From an uncultured Bacteroidales bacterium (lineage in GTDB: Bacteria; Bacteroidota; Bacteroidia; Bacteroidales; UBA3824), in contig CALFIU010000189.1 in NCBI GenBank assembly GCA_937877455.1, positions 28,852-92,851 on the forward strand: 64,000 bases of DNA, in the 5' to 3' direction. A program made the position numbers and the translations under genes. Of this stretch, positions 7,671 to 59,773 are shown in pieces; within the stretch, counting starts at the first letter, position 1, and each line of letters begins with the position of its first letter. Under the pieces are notes generated by a model. It made no database searches and was not told the DNA's origin. It saw only the letters and a list, made by a program, of their open reading frames with translations.

Positions 7671-7971
7671 TAAGAGGTCTTATCACAGCATTAATTATTT
7701 CATCGCCGACTGCCGATTCGACGAATGCTTTATCAATACAAATTCCTCTTGCCTTTTCATTGGCATCATAAGCAGTAATTCTTGTTCCGTCTTTGAGTTC
7801 TATCATAAATGGATGAACACCATTCTTTACAAATCTTAGAATGCACGAATGGTCTATTTTGCTGATAAAATCATTAAACCATTGTTCAGCCCATTCCCTA
7901 TGTTTAAAGAAAACACCTACCATCAGTCCGTTATATTTCATTTGTATATTCCTATTATAAGTAGCAAACAA
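7636..7971 (-). CDS. Hypothetical protein
   Basis: Co-oriented ORF. Confidence 0.45.
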   Translation of the reverse strand: MFATYNRNIQMKYNGLMVGVFFKHREWAEQWFNDFISKIDHSCILRFVKNGVHPFMIELKDGTRITAYDANEKARGICIDKAFVESAVGDEIINAVIRPLIGHKNFVEVEY

Positions 7972-8407
7972 CTATGTTAATCTGTGTATCTTTGAACACA
8001 TCTTTAATAAGCGTGCTTACATCTAACCAGTCCAACTTATCAAGTCCGCATCCTATTTTTGGCATAGCAACTTTTTTAATATTATATTTTTCACATCCAT
8101 TTTTCATTTTCTCTAATGCTCTTCTCATAGAATATAAAGTTGGTTTATGCCAATATCTTGTTTTAGTTATCAAGTCAATTATTCTTTTCTTACCATGTAA
8201 AAAAGCATCACCCGGAAGTTTCTCATCATATTCCAAATACCATTTAGAACCAAAAGCATATAGCAAATCTTCACGCAAATTAAATCTTCTTTCAAATTCT
8301 CTGGCTATTCCAGCGCCAAGTTTGAAGTCGGCGCTAATGCAATGAACCAGATGATAGCCTTTATCATGGTATTTAAAAAGATCGTCATTTATCTCTAAGT
8401 AATTCAT
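7955..8407 (-). CDS. Macrodomain protein, TARG1/OARD1/DarG-like ADP-ribose hydrolase
   Basis: HCISADFKLGAGIA, LITKTRYWHKPT and MPKIGCGLDKLDW..V motifs align with the TARG1-type macrodomain signature. Confidence 0.85.
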   Translation of the reverse strand: MNYLEINDDLFKYHDKGYHLVHCISADFKLGAGIAREFERRFNLREDLLYAFGSKWYLEYDEKLPGDAFLHGKKRIIDLITKTRYWHKPTLYSMRRALEKMKNGCEKYNIKKVAMPKIGCGLDKLDWLDVSTLIKDVFKDTQINIVVCYL

Positions 8408-14951: not shown

Positions 14952-15025
14952 TCACTCTCCGAATTATCTTGCATTATTTATCTGTCAATATTGATGTGAT
15001 AGCCTTCTCGAACTACCACACCAAT

Positions 15026-27604: not shown

Positions 27605-27653
27605 ATTATAACACATTTATGGAATTATGCAAGAGTTATTTTGTATTATTTCT
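27605..27653 (-). promoter_or_regulatory. Promoter TTGCAT-N16-TATAAT (TG-extended) preceded by the AATAATACAAAATAA motif
   Basis: The minus strand reads GAAATAATACAAAATAACTCTTGCATAATTCCATAAATGTGTTATAAT. Confidence 0.6.
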
Positions 27654-28354
27654 AAATTATCCTTATGTATGTACAGTTTTTCTGTAGACTTAAACTGATT
27701 GTTCTTATTAACATCAAGTATTCGTCTTATTTCTTTCTGCCATATACATACGAAATCATCTGGAGCATTCAGTTCTGAAATATATACCACATGATCTTTG
27801 CTTATCTGCCTCATATATTCCCAAAATTGTGCAGTATTAAAATCGCCATTAGCATATTTTGTCGTATTCTCATATGGTGGATCGGCATAAACAGCGCATC
27901 CGTCTGGAAGTAAAACATCTCTATAATCCAAACAAGTAAACTCTGCGTCCATTAGCGTCCTCATTTTGGACGCAAGCGACCGTTTACCTCTTAGTGCATA
28001 ATTAACTTGTGCCTTATCTCTTGCATAACCACCAAACCATTTACCACCAAAACTACATGCAAATCCGACAAATCCTGTTAGCGCAGGATCATCGTCTTTA
28101 TGTTCTTTTATGTAATGATATTGTTCTTCCGTAACTGTTTCAGGTAAATCATATCCGTTCTGTAATGCCTGAAATAAAGCAATCAAATACGGCTGATTAT
28201 CGTTGCATATAATCCTATCAAACCCTTTAACCTTTGCTTCTATGTTGCAAGCCCCACAAAAGAGGGAAACCAAGGTTCTACTTAGTGATACCCCCCCCTC
28301 TACGTGCAAGGCAATATCCTTTGCAATCCTTGATTTTCCACCTTGATACCTCAT
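27617..28354 (-). CDS. dam: DNA adenine methyltransferase (Dam-like, D12 class)
   Basis: N-terminal YQGGKSRIAK, FCGACN (FxGxG-like), and catalytic YADPPY. Confidence 0.85.
   Translation of the reverse strand: MRYQGGKSRIAKDIALHVEGGVSLSRTLVSLFCGACNIEAKVKGFDRIICNDNQPYLIALFQALQNGYDLPETVTEEQYHYIKEHKDDDPALTGFVGFACSFGGKWFGGYARDKAQVNYALRGKRSLASKMRTLMDAEFTCLDYRDVLLPDGCAVYADPPYENTTKYANGDFNTAQFWEYMRQISKDHVVYISELNAPDDFVCIWQKEIRRILDVNKNNQFKSTEKLYIHKDNLEIIQNNSCIIP
28291..28298 (-). repeat. G8 homopolymer (coding strand) inside dam, codons 20-22
   Basis: C8 on the plus strand. Encodes part of HVEGGVS. Confidence 0.95.
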
Positions 28355-28358
28355 TGTA

Positions 28359-28366
28359 CCCCCCCC
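28359..28366 (-). repeat. G8 homopolymer 4 nt upstream of the dam ATG (RBS position)
   Basis: The minus strand reads AGTAGGGGGGGGTACAATG. Confidence 0.95.
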
Positions 28367-28426
28367 TACTAATGATGCTTGCTATATTAGATGATATAAT
28401 GTACTTGCCACCTTGGTACTGCATAT

Positions 28427-28867
28427 TCACTCTCCGTCTATCTTTGTTTGTTTAGCTTCGCCATCTAAGCTATCATATGTTCCCATAGCTTCGCGTTGCG
28501 CCAACATTTTCCTGTTTTTCAAATCTTCAAAAAATTGTTCTTTTGGATTGATAAATACATATGCCAGTTCATTTCCAAAGAAAACGCCATAGATAACATC
28601 ATCGCAATCGCGCCATTTTCTTTTATCATCGTCTGTATAAACTCGCCAACGCATTTCAATTACGGTTGTATATTCATCCGTGAGAGCCTGTCCAGCAAAA
28701 CCACTTTTCAAATTAAATCCTGTCGCAGTATCAGCCCATGTTTGTATGAAAACATCAGCCCTGAATGTCGGGAAACAAGTATTCTTTAATATTCCCTCAC
28801 CTTCACTAAACACAAATTGTTTAAATTTATATTCAATCAATTCTAAATTAGGATACCTTGCTTTCAT
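28427..28867 (-). CDS. Hypothetical protein
   Basis: Co-oriented ORF. Confidence 0.45.
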   Translation of the reverse strand: MKARYPNLELIEYKFKQFVFSEGEGILKNTCFPTFRADVFIQTWADTATGFNLKSGFAGQALTDEYTTVIEMRWRVYTDDDKRKWRDCDDVIYGVFFGNELAYVFINPKEQFFEDLKNRKMLAQREAMGTYDSLDGEAKQTKIDGE

Positions 28868-32238: not shown

Positions 32239-32576
32239 GATATCGGATCGCCATTCATATCAAAATGTGATGCCATTTCGACATTCATTTGATATTCCTG
32301 TTCTTCGTACCAGTCTGCGATTTCTTTCTCAACCAGAAAATATATTGAATGTTCTGTCGTGATAATCAATCCATCATCTGCTTGCGCAACGCCTTTGACA
32401 AAAGAAGTAATGATTGACTTGTACCATCCGGGGTCTGTACATGTCATGTACAGGCGATTGTCAATCTTTATATCTTTTATATCAAGGTCAATAATGCGTC
32501 CAATGCGAGCCACAACTTCATCATCTGTCTTATCTTTCCCATCCAAATCAGTTATTTTAACAAGTTTGTAAAGCAT
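32235..32576 (-). CDS. Hypothetical protein
   Basis: Co-oriented ORF with 4-nt overlaps. Confidence 0.45.
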   Translation of the reverse strand: MLYKLVKITDLDGKDKTDDEVVARIGRIIDLDIKDIKIDNRLYMTCTDPGWYKSIITSFVKGVAQADDGLIITTEHSIYFLVEKEIADWYEEQEYQMNVEMASHFDMNGDPIS

Positions 32577-33309
32577 CTTTTACACCTAACCTTTCTTCCG
32601 CAATGCGCAGATATTCTTTATCAAGTTCTATTCCTAAAAATCTTCTGTTTGTATTTATACACGCAACACCTGTACTTCCAGAGCCACAACAGTTATCAAG
32701 AACTAAATCTCCTTCATTTGAATATGTTTTAATCAGCCATTCAAGAAGTGCAATCGGCTTTTGTGTTGGATGTAATCTACTGCTGTCACGAGGAAACGAT
32801 AGAATACTTAAAGGATTTCTTCTGCCATCTTCACTTTCAGAAAATGCTTCGTTTCTAAATCCATAATTTGTTGATAGGCTACTATTCTTTGTTCTCTTAT
32901 ACGGCTCTGAATACCAAAATTGTTTATTATATGTAGGTTTCTTTTTGTAAAATACTGCTATATCTTCATGGCATTTTAATGGTTTAACATTTGCGTTTAG
33001 GAAATCACATCCTCTTTGTTTATCCCATACAAGATTGTATCTCCACATTTTAGGATTTGATAAAAGCAATTTCGCCGTAAACATACCATCGCAAAATAGA
33101 ATTATTGCGCCATTATCTTTGATTATTCTTTTGTAATGCACCCATAATTCATCAAACGGTATCAAACAATCCCATGTGTTTCTTGTGGAAGAATATGGTA
33201 AATCACATAAAACCAAATCAATGCTTTTATCGGGGAGATTACCCATCAGAGATAGGCAATCCCCCCCCCACAAAGATATTTGTTTATTATTATTATTATT
33301 ATCTTGCAT
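32557..33309 (-). CDS. DNA methyltransferase (N6_N4 type, beta class)
   Basis: CDLPY catalytic motif and HPTQKP...VLDNCCGSGST SAM motif. Contains a G9 tract. Confidence 0.85.
   Translation of the reverse strand: MQDNNNNNKQISLWGGDCLSLMGNLPDKSIDLVLCDLPYSSTRNTWDCLIPFDELWVHYKRIIKDNGAIILFCDGMFTAKLLLSNPKMWRYNLVWDKQRGCDFLNANVKPLKCHEDIAVFYKKKPTYNKQFWYSEPYKRTKNSSLSTNYGFRNEAFSESEDGRRNPLSILSFPRDSSRLHPTQKPIALLEWLIKTYSNEGDLVLDNCCGSGSTGVACINTNRRFLGIELDKEYLRIAEERLGVKDALQTC
33261..33269 (-). repeat. G9 homopolymer (coding strand) at codons 14-16 of methyltransferase 32557-33309
   Basis: C9 on the plus strand. Encodes SLWGGDC and follows an (AAT)n asparagine run. Confidence 0.95.
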
Positions 33310-34328
33310 TATTCATTATCCATGACTGCATTATCTTTGATTTCCTTAATTTCTTTTGCCTTCAGTCCAAGAGCTTTTAACTGTGCTTCAAGTTCTTTAA
33401 TTTCCGCACGAACATCTTTCTTCTTCTGCTGAAGCCGCTTCTGCTCTTCTTTCACAGCTTTAGCATTTGTACTCTGCTCTTTTCCTTTTTCAAGTTCGAC
33501 ATTGAAACGTTCTTTCATAGCTTCAATACCATCATCTGTTTCAAAAATACTATCGTCCCACTTGCTAAATCTTTCATTAATTGCCAAATCATAGAAATCT
33601 TTATTGAGTTCAATGCCGATTGCACTTCTATGGTTTTCGATAGCAACCTTATTTACCGTGCCAGCACCAGCGAAAGGATCAAGTATTACATCACCCGGAC
33701 AAGACCATAGTCTAATACATCTCTCAACAAGTGCTTCAGCGAACGGAGTTGTATGTCCGATGCCTGAATTTCCTATATTCCATACACCATCAGCCCAATC
33801 AGCCCATTCAGCAAGTGTAATATCAGATGCCTTAATCAGTTCGCAATCGCCAGATTTTTTATAGACATATACGAAGCCGACATTGGCAGCGAGGATTGTA
33901 TCTCTGGCTTTCATATTCCTATAATAGAGATTGCCCTGTGCTAACATTGCTCTCTGCGCGGAATACTTGCGCCAAAATGCCTTAGTCCATAACTGGAAAT
34001 TGTTTTCAAGCATAATCCTGTTAATATCGCCAGTAATAGATTCCTGCCCCATCTTGTTATCTCTGCCGAGTGTGTAATTGTAATCTTCAAACTGCATGAT
34101 AAATTTACCACCGGGTTTAAGAACACGTTCACACTCAGCGATAACAAGACCAAGCATATAATAATATTCTTCGTAGCTTTCACAATTAGATAGATCGTGT
34201 GGATCGTTCGAGTAAACTCGAAGATTGTGATAAGGGGGGCTTGTCATAATCATATCAACGCTTTCAGCGTCAAGTTTCTTTAGTTCGGTAAGACAGTCAC
34301 CATTGATCCATTTGTTTGTTAATCTCAT
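33309..34328 (-). CDS. DNA methyltransferase (N4-C/N6-A type, SPPY) with C-terminal coiled coil
   Basis: Contains TSPPY and DPFAGAGTV. K/E-rich C-terminal tail. Confidence 0.85.
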   Translation of the reverse strand: MRLTNKWINGDCLTELKKLDAESVDMIMTSPPYHNLRVYSNDPHDLSNCESYEEYYYMLGLVIAECERVLKPGGKFIMQFEDYNYTLGRDNKMGQESITGDINRIMLENNFQLWTKAFWRKYSAQRAMLAQGNLYYRNMKARDTILAANVGFVYVYKKSGDCELIKASDITLAEWADWADGVWNIGNSGIGHTTPFAEALVERCIRLWSCPGDVILDPFAGAGTVNKVAIENHRSAIGIELNKDFYDLAINERFSKWDDSIFETDDGIEAMKERFNVELEKGKEQSTNAKAVKEEQKRLQQKKKDVRAEIKELEAQLKALGLKAKEIKEIKDNAVMDNE

Positions 34329-34348: not shown

Positions 34349-34414
34349 TTATCTTGCATTATCTATTATACCAAACATAAGATAGCTTGTCAATTACTAT
34401 CTTGTATTATTTCT
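34349..34414 (-). promoter_or_regulatory. Motif-bracketed promoter: AATAATACAAGATAG-N3-TTGACA-N17-TATAAT-N7-GCAAGATAA
   Basis: The minus strand reads GAAATAATACAAGATAGTAATTGACAAGCTATCTTATGTTTGGTATAATAGATAATGCAAGATAA. Confidence 0.7.
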
Positions 34415-38054: not shown

Positions 38055-38468
38055 TATGTACCTCCTGTATTAAATCTTTCCTGTATTTATATCTATGTAA
38101 AGCCTATCTAATCCTGACTCAAATGCGCCTATTCCTGAAAAGAAACTGCTCAATTTAAGGTCATCGAATAGATAAGGCATAACTTTATATAATTGTTTAT
38201 ATATATGATATAAAACATCTACTACTATACTATTTCCAGCCTGTTTATATAACTGACTGTTACTTATTCCTGCTGCTTCTGCTTTGTTAAAATCTTCATC
38301 AGAAAATCCCATTAGTCTAAAGCACTCTTTTGGAGTCAGCTTTCGTATTCTATATTCTTCTAATTCGTCACTTTCACATACTGTTATCGTATCGCTATCA
38401 TCTTCGAGATAACCTTTTGGGAAATAAATAACGCCTTCTCGTTTTTCATATTCTACCACTCGTTTCGC

Positions 38469-38476
38469 CCCCCCCG
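38469..38476 (-). repeat. G8 homopolymer in the C-terminal C5-MTase fragment (codons 29-31)
   Basis: C8 on the plus strand. Encodes IDSGGAK. Confidence 0.95.
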
Positions 38477-38675
38477 AATCGATAGTCCGTATCGCACCAA
38501 TAGTATTATCCTTAAAGGTTCTCAATCCTTCGTCATATCTTCTTTCGCACACAATCTTCATTTACCTTTTCTATCCTCAATATCATGTTTGATGTTTGAA
38601 GTGTCGGACAAGTCCATCCATTGTCTTGAACTCTTCCACGTTTTAATTTGCTTTTGGGGTAACTTGCATTAAATA

Positions 38676-38684
38676 CCCCCCCCC
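38676..38684 (-). repeat. G9 homopolymer at a frame junction between TRD-like segments
   Basis: The minus strand reads GATGCGGGGGGGGGTATTTAA. A G8 tract would read on into VFNASYPKSKLKRGRVQDNGWTCPTLQT. Confidence 0.95.
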
Positions 38685-39030
38685 GCATCACAGAGTATAT
38701 AACCCTTTTTAGTTGCCTGTCTTATTCTTATTTTGTCCATTTATTTTCACCAATACTTTTGGTTCATGCCCCCCACCTTGGCAAGTATTAAGTGTTGGAC
38801 ATAAACCATAGACGGAATAAACTCTTCCCACTTGTGGATTTTTAAAATTGTTTTCTTTTTGAATGTTTCCAAGCAAAATTATATCTTTTGTTTTATCTTG
38901 CATTATTTATATTCTATAATACCACTTTTCTCTTTTCTTCTGTTTCCGATTCCAGAATCATATCTTGCCGTAATGCAGCAAGCCACATCAACAACTCCTG
39001 CACCATTCACACACAAGTCAATACCTTGCC

Positions 39031-39075
39031 TCTTGTCTTGTCTTGTCTTGTCTTGTCTTGTCTTGTCTTGTCTTG
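39031..39075 (-). repeat. Pentanucleotide repeat (TCTTG)9, GACAA on the coding strand, inside the C5-MTase after motif VIII
   Basis: Nine perfect copies. It is translated as (DKTRQ)3 and followed by a stop in the present frame. Confidence 0.95.
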
Positions 39076-39941
39076 TCGGCTTCTAAGACACCATCGTGTA
39101 GTAAATCTCTTATAAGACTTCTTGCTTTTTCTGTGTTGATGTAATACTTTTCATCAACTTCATCTTCGAGCATGTCTAATAAACACTTCCCATCTGATAT
39201 CGGTTCTGGAAATTTAAATTGTCCGTTATCCATTTCCTTCTTGATTATGATTAGATATAATCTTTCTCTGTTTTGAGGTATGCCATAATTCTTAGCATTT
39301 AATACTTGCCAATAACAGTTATATCCATATTCGCCAAGTTCAGATATGAATAAATCAAAAGTAGGTTTAAATCTCTTGCTTACAATATTCTTTACATTCT
39401 CGTATATTCCCCAAGTAGGTTTATTTTCTTTTATGATACGCAACCATTCAACAAGTAGTGAAGATCGTGTTTTGTCAAGGTTCTGGCTACCGCAATTAGG
39501 GCATTTATTTCTTTTTGAATAATGAACTGTTAATGGATTATACTCGCATCCGCAATCGGAGCATTGCCATCTGCTGCCTTTCTGTTTTCCAGCTATTGAA
39601 AAATCCTGACATGGACTCCCACCGCAAATCATTGTAAATGGAAAAAGATTGTGTTCATCAACTTTTGTTATATCACCGAGATTTAAACTCTCATCTACTC
39701 CGTGAATTGCGCAGAAGCTTTTTGTTGCAAACTTATCAAATTCGCAGAAGTTTACAAGTTCATAACCTCGATCCGATAAAACAATCTTTTTATCGTTACT
39801 ATCTTCCATAAACTACCTATTTTAGCGCACTTTGAAAACCGTAACGCTTCACCTTTCTTGATTTTGTCGGCAAGCGAAAAATCTTTTTGACTATTTTAGC
39901 GAGTTTATTTTCACTGAAACGTTAATAAAAAGATTGTTTCT

Positions 39942-40007
39942 TTATCTTGCCTTATTTATTGTACTATATTAACACAATTTAGTCAAGTGTTATTTTGCAT
40001 TATCAAT
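39942..40007 (-). promoter_or_regulatory. Motif-bracketed promoter: GATAATGCAAAATAA-N3-TTGACT-N17-TACAAT-N7-GCAAGATAA
   Basis: The minus strand reads TTGATAATGCAAAATAACACTTGACTAAATTGTGTTAATATAGTACAATAAATAAGGCAAGATAA. Confidence 0.7.
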
Positions 40008-42047: not shown

Positions 42048-43314
42048 TTATTTATTGATTGTTAAATATTTTTGTGTTTTTTCGTTGCCATACTCTTTTT
42101 CATACTTGTCATAATTCGGAATATACATTTTCGTGTTCCCATGCATATTTATGTATTGCATCACAAACCAATATCCAAGACCTTTATTTGACGGTTTCCA
42201 CAAACCATTTTCATCAAATGCGCCGCCTCTTAAAATGTAATCCTGAATCTTCGGATTTGATAATTCTTCAATTAGTTCTAACCGATTAGGACGTTTTTCT
42301 AAATGCAGTCCGAACCCACACATGCAGCATCCAGTCCTTGAACATCCTGTTGTTTTTAAGCATGGTCTATCTAATTCAAATATTCCTTTATCCTCATATC
42401 CCACAACGTCAAATTTAGAACCATCATCGGCTACAATATCACCATATACGGGGCATAATTTTATATCATGTAGAAGTGCATACAAAAGAATATCTTGCTC
42501 AAACCAGAATGACATCGGATTACTGATGGGATTTTTAGCATCAAACATATTACATCCGTGTTGAAGCCATTTCTGCGTTCTAAGCCTACTTTCACTTGCC
42601 ATTTGTGCAGTGATACCTTTTCTTCCTGTCTGCTTCGTATATGTGTGCATTGGTGATTTTTTCATTACATTGCAACACTTATTTGATATTTCAAAAGGAG
42701 CTTCAAGTAAAAACTGCCATTTTACTTGCGTAAATTGTGACTTATCTTTTTCAGGGATATTCGCCTTTATCTGTTGATCCTTCGTCAGCATCCCCAACAT
42801 TTGAGCGAGTCTCTGATTGTTGCCTCCTTTGTGGTTTTTCATTCTGTAATTTAGTATATTCGCCAATTCCTCGGAGTTTGCGATATTTGTTATCGTACCC
42901 CCCCTCGACATTGAAATCAGGCATTGTCTCTTCTTCTATCAGCTTTGTCAAATATTTTCTTGCACCAGATACACATTCCGATACTTCTTTTGATACGAAT
43001 GGATAACCATATTTTTCTATCGTTTGTTTAAATCCCATTTTAGGTTTAATCCAATCAACGTTATCAAAAGTCTTTACAAAACTTCTAATCTCTGGATATT
43101 CCAAACCAGTATCAGAATAGACTGCTTTAATATTTGGATACATTTCTCGTGCAATATGTAAAAGAACCGTACTGTCTTTGCCTCCACTGAACGAAACAAA
43201 CACACCATCTTCTCCATATTCATTTACCCATTGTCTAATTCTGTTCTGCGTCATGCGAACTTTTATATCAAGAGGTAATGCTTGCATTTGTTGTAAGTCT
43301 TGCCGTGTTCTCAT
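42048..43314 (-). pseudogene. PAPS-reductase/DndC-like PP-loop enzyme, split by a frameshift at a G7 tract
   Basis: The upstream ORF has the FSGGKDS PP-loop and the downstream ORF has the Cys-rich C-terminus (CSRTGCCMCG). The two frames overlap, and removing one G at 42898-42904 gives ...FNVEGGTITNIANSEE... Confidence 0.75.
42898..42904 (-). repeat. G7 homopolymer at the PAPS-reductase-like frame junction
   Basis: C7 on the plus strand. Confidence 0.95.
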
Positions 43315-59705: not shown

Positions 59706-59773
59706 TTATCTTGCATTTCTTATATTATAACATTGTCACTTTGGTATGTCAATATTTATCTTGTATTATCTAT
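59706..59773 (-). promoter_or_regulatory. Motif-bracketed promoter: GATAATACAAGATAA-N3-TTGACA-N17-TATAAT-N9-GCAAGATAA
   Basis: The minus strand reads ATAGATAATACAAGATAAATATTGACATACCAAAGTGACAATGTTATAATATAAGAAATGCAAGATAA. Confidence 0.7.

Follow-up and report, generated by a model that had tools for sequence, protein, structure and literature searches.

Multispecific cytosine-5 DNA methyltransferases (C5-MTases) of Bacillus phages and prophages such as M.SPRI, M.Phi3TI, M.Rho11sI, M.H2I and M.phiBssHII have one core and several modular target recognition domains (TRDs) between motifs VIII and IX, and M.phiBssHII is said to possess TRD-like modules after its last motif (cited in PMC8936443). A relative of these enzymes is encoded on the minus strand (39809..38070) of the 64,000-nucleotide stretch of DNA analysed here, hereafter the window (contig CALFIU010000189.1 of assembly GCA_937877455.1), where a three-frame map of open segments resolved a C5-MTase gene into six frame-shifted pieces with five frame breaks within 1.7 kb. 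The locus resembles the Bacillus multispecific MTases in combining one core with tandem modular TRDs between motifs VIII and IX. Those enzymes are however single polypeptides of canonical I-X motif order and free of repeats, whereas the enzyme described here is permuted and split and has hypermutable tracts within its modules. Its carrier is a large phage of Clostridia from the gut or rumen. We regard the gene as probably a contingency locus, that is a working, hypermutable, split and permuted multispecific phage C5-MTase which switches its TRDs and its C-terminal subunit.

C5-MTases composed of two polypeptides are represented by M.AquI and M.EcoHK31I, and fragments of monomeric C5-MTases complement (PMC3404938, PMC5944983). 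The split of M.AquI falls inside the variable region (PMC3404938). The window locus shares with both enzymes the placement of catalytic and small-domain elements in separate overlapping open reading frames (ORFs) but differs in having more than two pieces, motif I together with motifs IX-X, TRD-only ORFs and repeats that decide on fusion. Phase-variable MTases of bacteria are switched reversibly ON and OFF by a non-triplet repeat or poly-G tract within the ORF (PMC4889913, PMC6902483). Such a repeat-driven switch is common to the locus and to the Type III mod, Type I and IIG enzymes of Haemophilus, Neisseria, Helicobacter and Campylobacter, although the latter have one tract per gene that affects the whole enzyme, are mostly adenine MTases and reside in cellular genomes, while here several tracts per locus, each predicted to gate one 5-methylcytosine (m5C) specificity module, are found in a phage. 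In phages, the DNA-modification gene agt of T2 is a contingency locus that balances one restriction system against another (bioRxiv 10.1101/2025.10.21.683753). Both T2/T4 agt and the poly-G of the Fletchervirus receptor-binding-protein genes are similar to the locus in being hypermutable homopolymers in phage genes with bet-hedging against host defences, but these are single short tracts in ordinary genes without modular specificity switching, split or permutation. No account of a system like the one below turned up in the literature searched.

Pieces of the locus and their relatives

The N-terminal catalytic piece, ORF A (39018..39809, on the minus strand as are all pieces of the locus; 263 amino acids (aa); frame 2, frames being given as the position of the first codon modulo 3), matched PF00145 with an E-value of 1.2e-45, in agreement with the original prediction, which had been made from the sequence alone. 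It included motif II (39761-39726), motif III (39677-39660), motif IV GGSPCQDFS (39623-39597), motif VI ENV (YENVKN, 39404-39387) and motif VIII QNRER (QNRERLY, 39275-39255), so that the PCQ with the nucleophilic cysteine, the ENV and the QxRxR expected of a PF00145 enzyme were all located in this ORF. Motifs I-VIII had been assigned to it, and those from II to VIII were indeed present while motif I was found at the C-terminus of the last piece. The analogy drawn to Type III mod genes, with an N6-adenine Mod and a Res subunit, failed as the enzyme is a PF00145 C5-MTase, and no large helicase-type Res-like gene was seen in the flanking ORFs (about 37.2-38.05 and 40.0-41.2 kb), only part of which were scanned against family libraries. 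A CxxC...CxxC zinc-ribbon insert follows motif IV (39563-39489). The insert between motifs IV and VI was kept throughout the family and gave weak Pfam matches to HypA and Zn_ribbon_8.

A perfect (GACAA)9.4 array of 47 bases (39031..39077; 100% matches in Tandem Repeats Finder) was located at the junction of ORF A with the first TRD module and has the most copies of any perfect microsatellite in the window; it had been recognised before as a slightly shorter pentanucleotide array at 39031-39075. With nine copies the frame of ORF A ends soon after the array in E-A-R-Y-stop, an OFF state, and by frame arithmetic 7, 10 or 13 copies fuse ORF A to a segment reading GIDLCVNG...IIEYK. Both outcomes were anticipated in the original prediction, and the fused ORF was found in a relative with seven copies, L161 (loci in the comparison are given as L numbers). 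The segment in question, TRD module 1 or S1 (module 38903..39025, open segment 39082..38906; frame 1, +1 with respect to ORF A), runs as GIDLCVNG...CCITARYDSGIGNRRKEKSGIIEYK to a TAA stop and is homologous to modules that are in frame in intact enzymes, such as CGIDKS...NCVTAREDRGISNRKSEG in L023.

Three more TRD-like segments had been expected in other frames and were recovered. The TRD mini-ORF S2 (38709..38903, 64 aa, frame 2; MQDKTKDIILLGN...GRVYSVYGLCPTLNTCQGGGHEPKVLVKI...) contains an in-frame G6 tract (38769-38774). In the three-frame map S3 (38533..38740) was broken by a G9 tract (38676..38684) into S3a on the 5' side (MDKIRIRQATKKGYILCDAGG, 38740..38672, frame 1) and S3b on the 3' side (VFNASYPKSKLKRGRVQDNGWTCPTLQT...VRKKI, to 38536, frame 0), and a change of G9 to G8 would give back a 68-aa ORF. 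The C-terminal piece S4 (38070..38561, 163 aa, frame 2) includes TRD module 4 (MKIVCERRYDEGLRTFKDNTIGAIRTIDSGG-AKRVVEYEKREGVIYF) with an in-frame G8 tract (38468..38475), a conserved GTG 3' of this tract (38459-38457), motif IX (38354-38304), motif X (38255-38211) and, at the C-terminus, motif I FFSGIGAFE (LKLSSFFSGIGAFESGLDRL, 38159-38100). Motifs IX-X therefore come after the TRD segments, as had been stated, and S4 covered PF00145 profile positions 258-323 of 324. The earlier repeat inventory was correct for GACAA and G9 and had overlooked the in-frame G8 of S4 and G6 of S2.

Each of the four TRD-like modules has a TL-type motif (ITAR, CPTLNT, CPTLQT and AIRTIDSGG), and no in-frame nonsense mutation was found within any module. 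ORF A (motifs II-VIII) and S4 (TRD, IX, X and I) jointly hold all of the catalytic motifs, which is a two-ORF arrangement of the M.AquI type. A single continuous ORF of the SPR/phi3T type was absent from the window and was present in 27 intact relatives.

Relatives of ORF A numbered in the hundreds across viral, genomic and metagenomic collections, and of 62 distinct loci that included both ends, 27 were single-ORF and 35 were fragmented. Between motifs VIII and IX the intact enzymes (about 450-540 aa) had 3-5 TRD modules in tandem, with close relatives among them differing by gain or loss of entire modules. Intact homologues were very common in metagenomes and were present in assemblies of Lachnospiraceae and other Clostridia, one of them on a 93.6-kb contig (L085) of the Enterocloster hominis isolate CLA-SR-H021, while the fragmented clade was found on viral contigs of roughly 50-170 kb. 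The simplest split was that of L027, in which an A-S1 ORF (347 aa) is followed by an overlapping MVSNIRVRRLTP...IX-X-I ORF (115 aa). Likening the locus to the SPR/phi3T multispecific MTases was borne out by the tandem TRDs of the intact homologues, and the comparison with M.AquI was apt given the A/S4 pair and the L027 layout.

The close relatives of the window locus were found by a metagenome scan and an S4 homologue search and came from JGI, ENA and GenBank metagenome assemblies. The closest with the same layout was L161, which had 81-88% nucleotide identity over the locus and three repeat-free junctions in common with the window. Sequence identity to the MTases of cultured Bacillus phages was 35-40%. 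The best 120 database matches to S4 were all stand-alone ORFs of 107-267 aa. No match was returned by exact-protein look-ups with S4 and both neighbour genes, by megablast against cultured phages, or by a search for the GACAA-array flank pattern in IMG/VR.

Two types of junction were distinguished in the fragmented loci. Those within modules are at G5-G11 tracts on a conserved Gly-Gly (CQGG/EPKV, IDSGG/DKRV, RAGG/ERKYR, GSGG/QGWIYS and CxxGG/VxDxSYP). Those between modules are without a repeat, and the upstream stop overlaps an ATG of the following piece in a different frame (TAATG, ATGA or GGAATGA, with overlaps of up to about 60 nucleotides (nt)). The repeat-free S1/S2, S2/S3 and S3/S4 junctions were common to the window, L161 and L242, the S3/S4 junction was also seen in L241, the contig of which starts inside S3, and no recognisable slippery heptamer or homopolymer was present at them. 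These three conserved stop/start overlaps indicate that the enzyme is genuinely split, which was one of the three possibilities raised for the locus and holds together with the repeat-driven switch described below. Reassignment of a stop codon was also considered and ruled out, as module ends make use of all three stops and read-through would be unable to join pieces that are in different frames.

Several features were related to translation starts. The mean Shine-Dalgarno duplex energy at module ATGs (-4.15) was intermediate between that of genes (-6.88) and that of random ATGs (-2.52). In many loci a GGAG was located inside the ...NGVIE codons 5' of the ORF after S1, and the intact clade was mostly without a Met at module starts. 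The Val codon 3' of the S4-type tract was GTG in 15 of 15 fragmented loci versus a genomic GTG use of 13%. This GTG is placed 7-9 nt past the Shine-Dalgarno-like G run, usually in a GTGA overlap with the upstream stop, and gene callers begin ORFs of 127-129 aa there. We infer that the IX-X-I piece may be started internally at the GTG regardless of tract phase, in which case the S4-type tract would set only whether the TRD half is covalently attached.

Some relatives featured further modules or genes. TRD-like modules were located 3' of motif I in L001, L002, L003, L012, L013, L017 and L027 (for example IIYDDYNSNVRADQNTIGTLTT; S3-type in L027), some of them joined in frame through an additional G tract, and none occurred in the window; the ratio of non-synonymous to synonymous substitution rates (dN/dS) for such a module between L002 and L017 was 0.06. 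A second C5-MTase gene of conventional order (IINKKLKVLSLFDGISCG...) was found directly 3' of the fragmented locus in L005, L006 and L008 (about 7700-8300), with its own G7 tract in L005 and L006. A third repeat type at such loci was (CT)10 (L167 5116-5135), in the TRD region of a fragmented homologue with six G6-G9 tracts.

Motif order of the enzyme family

The canonical order of motifs I to X in one polypeptide was not found in the family, where the order was II-VIII, tandem TRDs, IX, X and I. ORF A begins at motif II and lacks motif I, the end of S4 (...MPYLFDDLKLSSFFSGIGAFESGLDRLY...) is motif I, and a C-terminal motif I was seen in all relatives examined, both intact and fragmented. With motif I at the C-terminus of the last ORF, the family has a circular permutation whose break falls between motifs I and II. 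The intact homologue P0001 aligned to M.HhaI in three segments (15-76 to 34-92, 107-228 to 91-213 and 418-470 to 270-318), and no segment of P0001 matched M.HhaI residues 1-33. Moving the C-terminal tail to the front increased the PF00145 score of P0001 from 204.4 to 216.1 bits, and that of ORF A increased from 156.9 to 164.9 bits with the motif-I tail in front. The S4 tail spliced onto ORF A was colinear with M.HhaI 12-92, at 60.8 bits versus 49.7 bits without proper splicing.

A 2018 survey of REBASE reported no natural C5-MTase topology besides those already listed, and non-natural topologies came only from engineered permutants, several of which were active (PMC5944983). The natural permuted C5-MTases M.BssHII, M.Alw26I, M2.Eco31I, M.Esp3I and M2.BsaI are like the present family in having motif X before motif I. 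In type H, that of M.BssHII, the N-terminus is in the variable region and IX-X precede I-VIII, whereas here motif II is at the N-terminus and motif I is the final one. To judge from the alignments, a break between motifs I and II is a topology that was uncatalogued among natural C5-MTases in 2018 (PMC5944983). If so, the family adds a natural permutation to those described, one represented in that survey by engineered enzymes only, which had activity. Among the permuted homologues, L089 (1614-3035) and L091 (6001-7500) had Hint (intein-like) insertions CFPAGT...VVHN/C that break motif IV (GGSPC/QDFS).

Repeat variation, selection and readings of the locus

Differences between closely related genomes were concentrated at the repeats. 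L007 and L009 were identical over 6.7 kb but for G11 versus G6 at the A/S1 junction. L004, L205 and L210 were 98.4-99.5% identical, with indels confined to two poly-G sites (G8/G7/G8 and G7/G8/G6, respectively) and one intergenic A-run, and the small coding indels among L005, L006, L008 and L010 were nearly all at G tracts. Over the 1.7-kb locus the window and L161 differed by four indels, these being GACAA 9 versus 7, G9 versus G8, G8 versus G9 and an in-frame indel of 3 nt.

All four repeats differed in length among relatives, in support of the slippage-controlled switch that the original prediction had offered as a further possibility, which is compatible with the split. In the window the states were GACAA 9 (OFF), S2 G6 (ON), S3 G9 (OFF) and S4 G8 (ON), while in L161 they were GACAA 7 (A-S1 fused, ON), S2 G8 (ON), S3 G8 (ON, 68-aa ORF) and S4 G9 (OFF). 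L241 had S3 G9 and S4 G6 (OFF), the GACAA and S2 sites being outside its contig. L242 had about two GACAA copies, the phase of its S2 G8 joined S2N and S3 in a 123-aa ORF within which S3 was ON, and its S4 was G8 (ON). L162 (GACAA 10, S2 G6 ON) and L163 (GACAA 8, without an S2-type tract) were without coverage of S3 and S4. The S2-type tract ranged from G5 to G9 among relatives and was found both ON and OFF. At the A/S1 junction GACAA was present in the window lineage and a G5-G11 tract in most other lineages, which indicates that two different slippery elements were recruited at the same position.

Several sequencing platforms are prone to errors at long G runs, and it could be argued that the breaks are sequencing or assembly artefacts in what is really a single intact ORF. 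Of the five breaks, however, three are off homopolymers and recurred in the independent assemblies L161, L241 and L242, the pentanucleotide copy number changes by whole units, and G11 versus G6 is a 5-base difference. An artefact is thereby refuted at the repeat-free junctions, and for the locus as a whole we consider this the least probable of the explanations.

Calling a tract ON or OFF by any open frame across it proved too lax, and homology-anchored and read-through calls were used instead. Each tract had one long-reading phase and two phases that stopped within about 5-20 codons, as at random positions. The G tracts of at least 6 were in the long-reading phase in 37 of 75 cases versus 25 expected (one third; p = 0.005). 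A 'frame-hop' design, in which the alternative phase would enter the next module, was tried as a candidate and rejected since the second-best phase had a median of 16 codons versus 15 at random across the 75 tracts, and being no longer than random it leaves the tracts as simple ON/OFF switches. The S2N-S3 fusion of L242 (123 aa) is an exception to this pattern.

The fragmented loci contained 42 G runs of at least 6 in 33.4 kb (1.26 per kb) and a single C run, as compared to 0.09 G runs per kb in their flanks, which amounts to a 14-fold, strand-specific enrichment. Comparison with the intact homologues, proposed together with the original claims, showed the 27 single-ORF loci to be almost devoid of such runs (0 in 25.6 kb). 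In the window six G/C runs of at least 7 were present versus a mean of 1.0 and a maximum of 4 in shuffles. GGG is the rarest Gly codon in the other genes of the window (80 of 848), and an intact relative writes the same Gly-Gly as GGT GGA.

Purifying selection was evident for every piece of the locus. Between the window and L161, with each piece in its own frame, dN/dS was 0.04 for A, 0.10 for S1, 0.05 for S2, 0.12 for S3a, 0.21 for S3b, 0.11 for S4a and 0.09 for S4b. For S1-S3 pooled it was 0.10 (44.5 synonymous and 25.5 non-synonymous changes), and wrong-frame controls of the same DNA gave 0.6-5.9. In other fragmented pairs true TRD modules were at about 0.06-0.3 and off-frame segments at about 1 or more. 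Both the window and L161 have the same out-of-frame junctions, so that selection acted on the fragmented state. Frame-shifting repeats within ORFs (GACAA x9.4, G9, G8 and G6), length polymorphism with ON and OFF alleles, and repeat enrichment with coding selection, as expected of a contingency locus, were thus all found.

These values bear on the proposal that the locus is a decaying multispecific MTase, which had been the first of the three possibilities. As a plain pseudogene it would be a dead enzyme gathering frameshifts in a phage that has no need of it, and the five frame breaks in 1.7 kb, an ON fraction near one third at homologous sites and the lack of a close relative in the cultured-phage database that could confirm function would all be in keeping with this. 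Decay is contradicted by the low own-frame dN/dS (0.04-0.21 for all pieces, 0.10 for the pooled S1-S3 in particular) together with the absence of nonsense mutations, by the restriction of frameshifting differences from L161 to repeats, the sole other indel being the one of 3 nt, and by a layout that was kept in 35 distinct loci with the enriched, strand-specific G runs. The pseudogene explanation is largely refuted and was given very little weight.

The contingency-locus model would operate as follows. The gene is cut into overlapping, separately initiated ORFs, namely the N-terminal A, the TRD pieces and the C-terminal piece with a TRD and IX-X-I, and A and S4 would presumably assemble non-covalently in the manner of M.AquI alpha and beta. 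Repeats in or at the TRD modules would slip during replication, with one phase continuing and two stopping, such that the GACAA array gates attachment of TRD1, G9 gates TRD3 and G8 gates the fused C-terminal subunit. The predicted output of the window is A plus S4, a core with the specificity of TRD4. Progeny with other tract lengths would gain or lose single specificities, or the whole enzyme if the S4 tract slips. The benefit would likely be bet-hedging between hosts with restriction that is blocked by m5C and hosts that attack methylated DNA, and changing the methylated sites probably helps the phage population to escape host restriction.

Several observations weigh against this model. No repeat change in the window joins S2 or S3 to a catalytic piece, their junctions being repeat-free, and the model leaves the action of free TRD peptides of 64-68 aa unexplained, though they are under selection. 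The homology-anchored sites were ON in 24 cases and OFF in 41 (24 of 65, near the chance level of one third). Many OFF states in relatives were a short G5, one base off ON and kept across diverse phages; at the S4-type site G5 was retained in 8 diverse phages, and at two other classes of site it was the most frequent of the OFF states. A tract so short should be poorly mutable, and at these sites its conservation is better explained by a fixed split or recoding than by rapid switching. Slippage within a population is suggested by differences between assemblies. Structure prediction yielded no usable model, with AlphaFold giving a pLDDT (predicted local distance difference test) of 32.5 and a pTM (predicted template modelling score) of 0.21 for the intact homologue P0001 with 14 homologues, from a shallow alignment (83-97% identity).

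The conserved G5 is a point in favour of programmed recoding, in which largely one chain or long fusions would arise, whatever the tract length in the DNA, by a -1 ribosome shift or polymerase stutter on G runs and by shift or re-initiation at overlaps. The frameshifts would then be a fixed means of expression and not a genetic switch. At the S4-type site the G5 kept in those phages is one base short of ON, a -1 Gly-tRNA slip on it would yield exactly the conserved ...SGGDKRV..., and the IX-X-I part had a dN/dS of 0.10 between L013 and L015, which are both G5. Against recoding are the repeat-free junctions, with their lack of a recognisable slippery heptamer or homopolymer, and the DNA tract lengths, which do differ among near-identical genomes, and internal initiation at the invariant GTG is a simpler route to IX-X-I. 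It appears rather unlikely overall.

For the action of S2 and S3 the candidate readings are free TRD subunits, recoding into longer chains and a cassette reservoir. It is possible, if somewhat doubtful, that S2 and S3 (as G8) are free, exchangeable specificity subunits that dock on a split A plus IX-X-I core, each of them switched by its tract. If true, M and S functions would be separate in this C5-MTase, an organisation resembling that of Type I systems, and one phage genome would encode combinatorial, stochastically varying m5C specificities. The alignment score of an S2-type module with the M.HhaI TRD was insignificant, and therefore no specificity is claimed.

Alternatively, A and the last ORF would make the enzyme and the TRD mini-ORFs would be silent cassettes without a useful translation product, kept under intermittent selection as donors that recombination among modules or among co-infecting phages brings into an expressed position in frame. 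Whole-module indels between close phages (L026 versus L040; L005 versus L006, with a 16-nt indel and module differences) and conserved module flanks (I.QLGN... and ...PKVLV) that could support recombination are consistent with such a reservoir, as are the inability of S2 and S3 to be fused in the window and the occurrence of S2-type and S4-type modules in one frame in L002, L015 and L017. Against it, S2 and S3 matched the catalytic core in their low dN/dS between two phages with common out-of-frame junctions, pointing to continuous rather than occasional selection. The mini-ORFs also have their own ATGs, largely missing in the intact clade, and retain ON/OFF tracts that would be pointless in untranslated DNA. 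We therefore view a silent reservoir as quite improbable.

If the contingency-locus model is correct, the methylation pattern would be stochastic, heritable and reversible with separate switches for each recognition module, and contingency loci would extend from bacterial surface and mod genes and T-even agt to modular enzyme specificity in phages. In that case a widespread group of gut and rumen Clostridia phages would have no fixed anti-restriction methylation pattern. For tools of targeted methylation, natural self-assembling MTase fragments and portable TRDs would be of interest. Loci of this kind will be thrown out by gene callers and pseudogene filters, and phase-variable methylation could confound methylome-based linking of phages to hosts.

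Promoter, recurrent motif and neighbouring modification genes

Within about 38916..38879 all three frames are closed at an exact copy of the motif AATAATGCAAGATAA (38893..38907, minus strand). The closure had been reported and was confirmed, while the idea of a lesion at a promoter-like motif was not upheld. The ATG of this copy (38903-38901) is the start of S2 and overlaps the S1 stop (TAATG), and the motif was found shortly past A-S1, where the next module starts or close to it, in L161, L162, L163, L164 and L242. Its recurrence across the lineage indicates a gene-start signal and not damage. Among the fetched loci the AATAATGCAAGATAA-type motif was confined to the window lineage apart from one distant match in L104 outside any MTase locus.

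The window contained 26 matches to AATAATGCAAGATAA at no more than two mismatches versus 1.1 expected, 25 of which were on the coding strand. A sigma-70-like promoter, TTGACT-17-TACAAT (39958..39986, minus strand), is located 5' of ORF A and was the best in the region with a consensus match of 10/12, and is a candidate for the promoter of ORF A. It is flanked on both sides by AATAATGCAAGATAA-type copies (39990-40004 and 39942-39956). In general the sites either brace sigma-70-like promoters, 5' of the -35 and just 3' of the -10, or precede ribosome-binding sites by 15-25 nt, with further examples in the window at 34349-34411, 59706-59770 and 14964-14978. Copies with an ATG often open an upstream ORF of 6-9 codons that ends at, overlaps or falls a few nt before the main start. 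The motif probably serves the phage lineage as an operator or leader element.

Phage genes of the window included Pol III alpha, NrdD, DnaB, an SNF2 helicase, a CCA-adding enzyme and an RNA ligase. All G runs of at least 7 in the window were on the coding strand of DNA-modification genes, and the tracts outside the MTase locus were near gene 5' ends. A Dam-like (D12-class) adenine MTase (27617-28430, minus strand) had two G8 tracts (28291-28298 and 28359-28366) and two successive N-terminal 'YQGGK' segments (ORFs 28278..28430 and 27617..28354). This gene may also encode a phase-variable MTase, the second in the window, perhaps one with alternative N-termini. An N6/N4 MTase (32557-33313, minus strand) has its start ATG within an exact AATAATGCAAGATAA, overlapping the stop of a preceding N6/N4 MTase (33309..34328), with (TAA)6 and an in-frame G9 (33261-33269) after the start. 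In a PAPS-reductase-domain gene (42048-42911, minus strand) a G7 is present at codons 3-5 (42898-42904).

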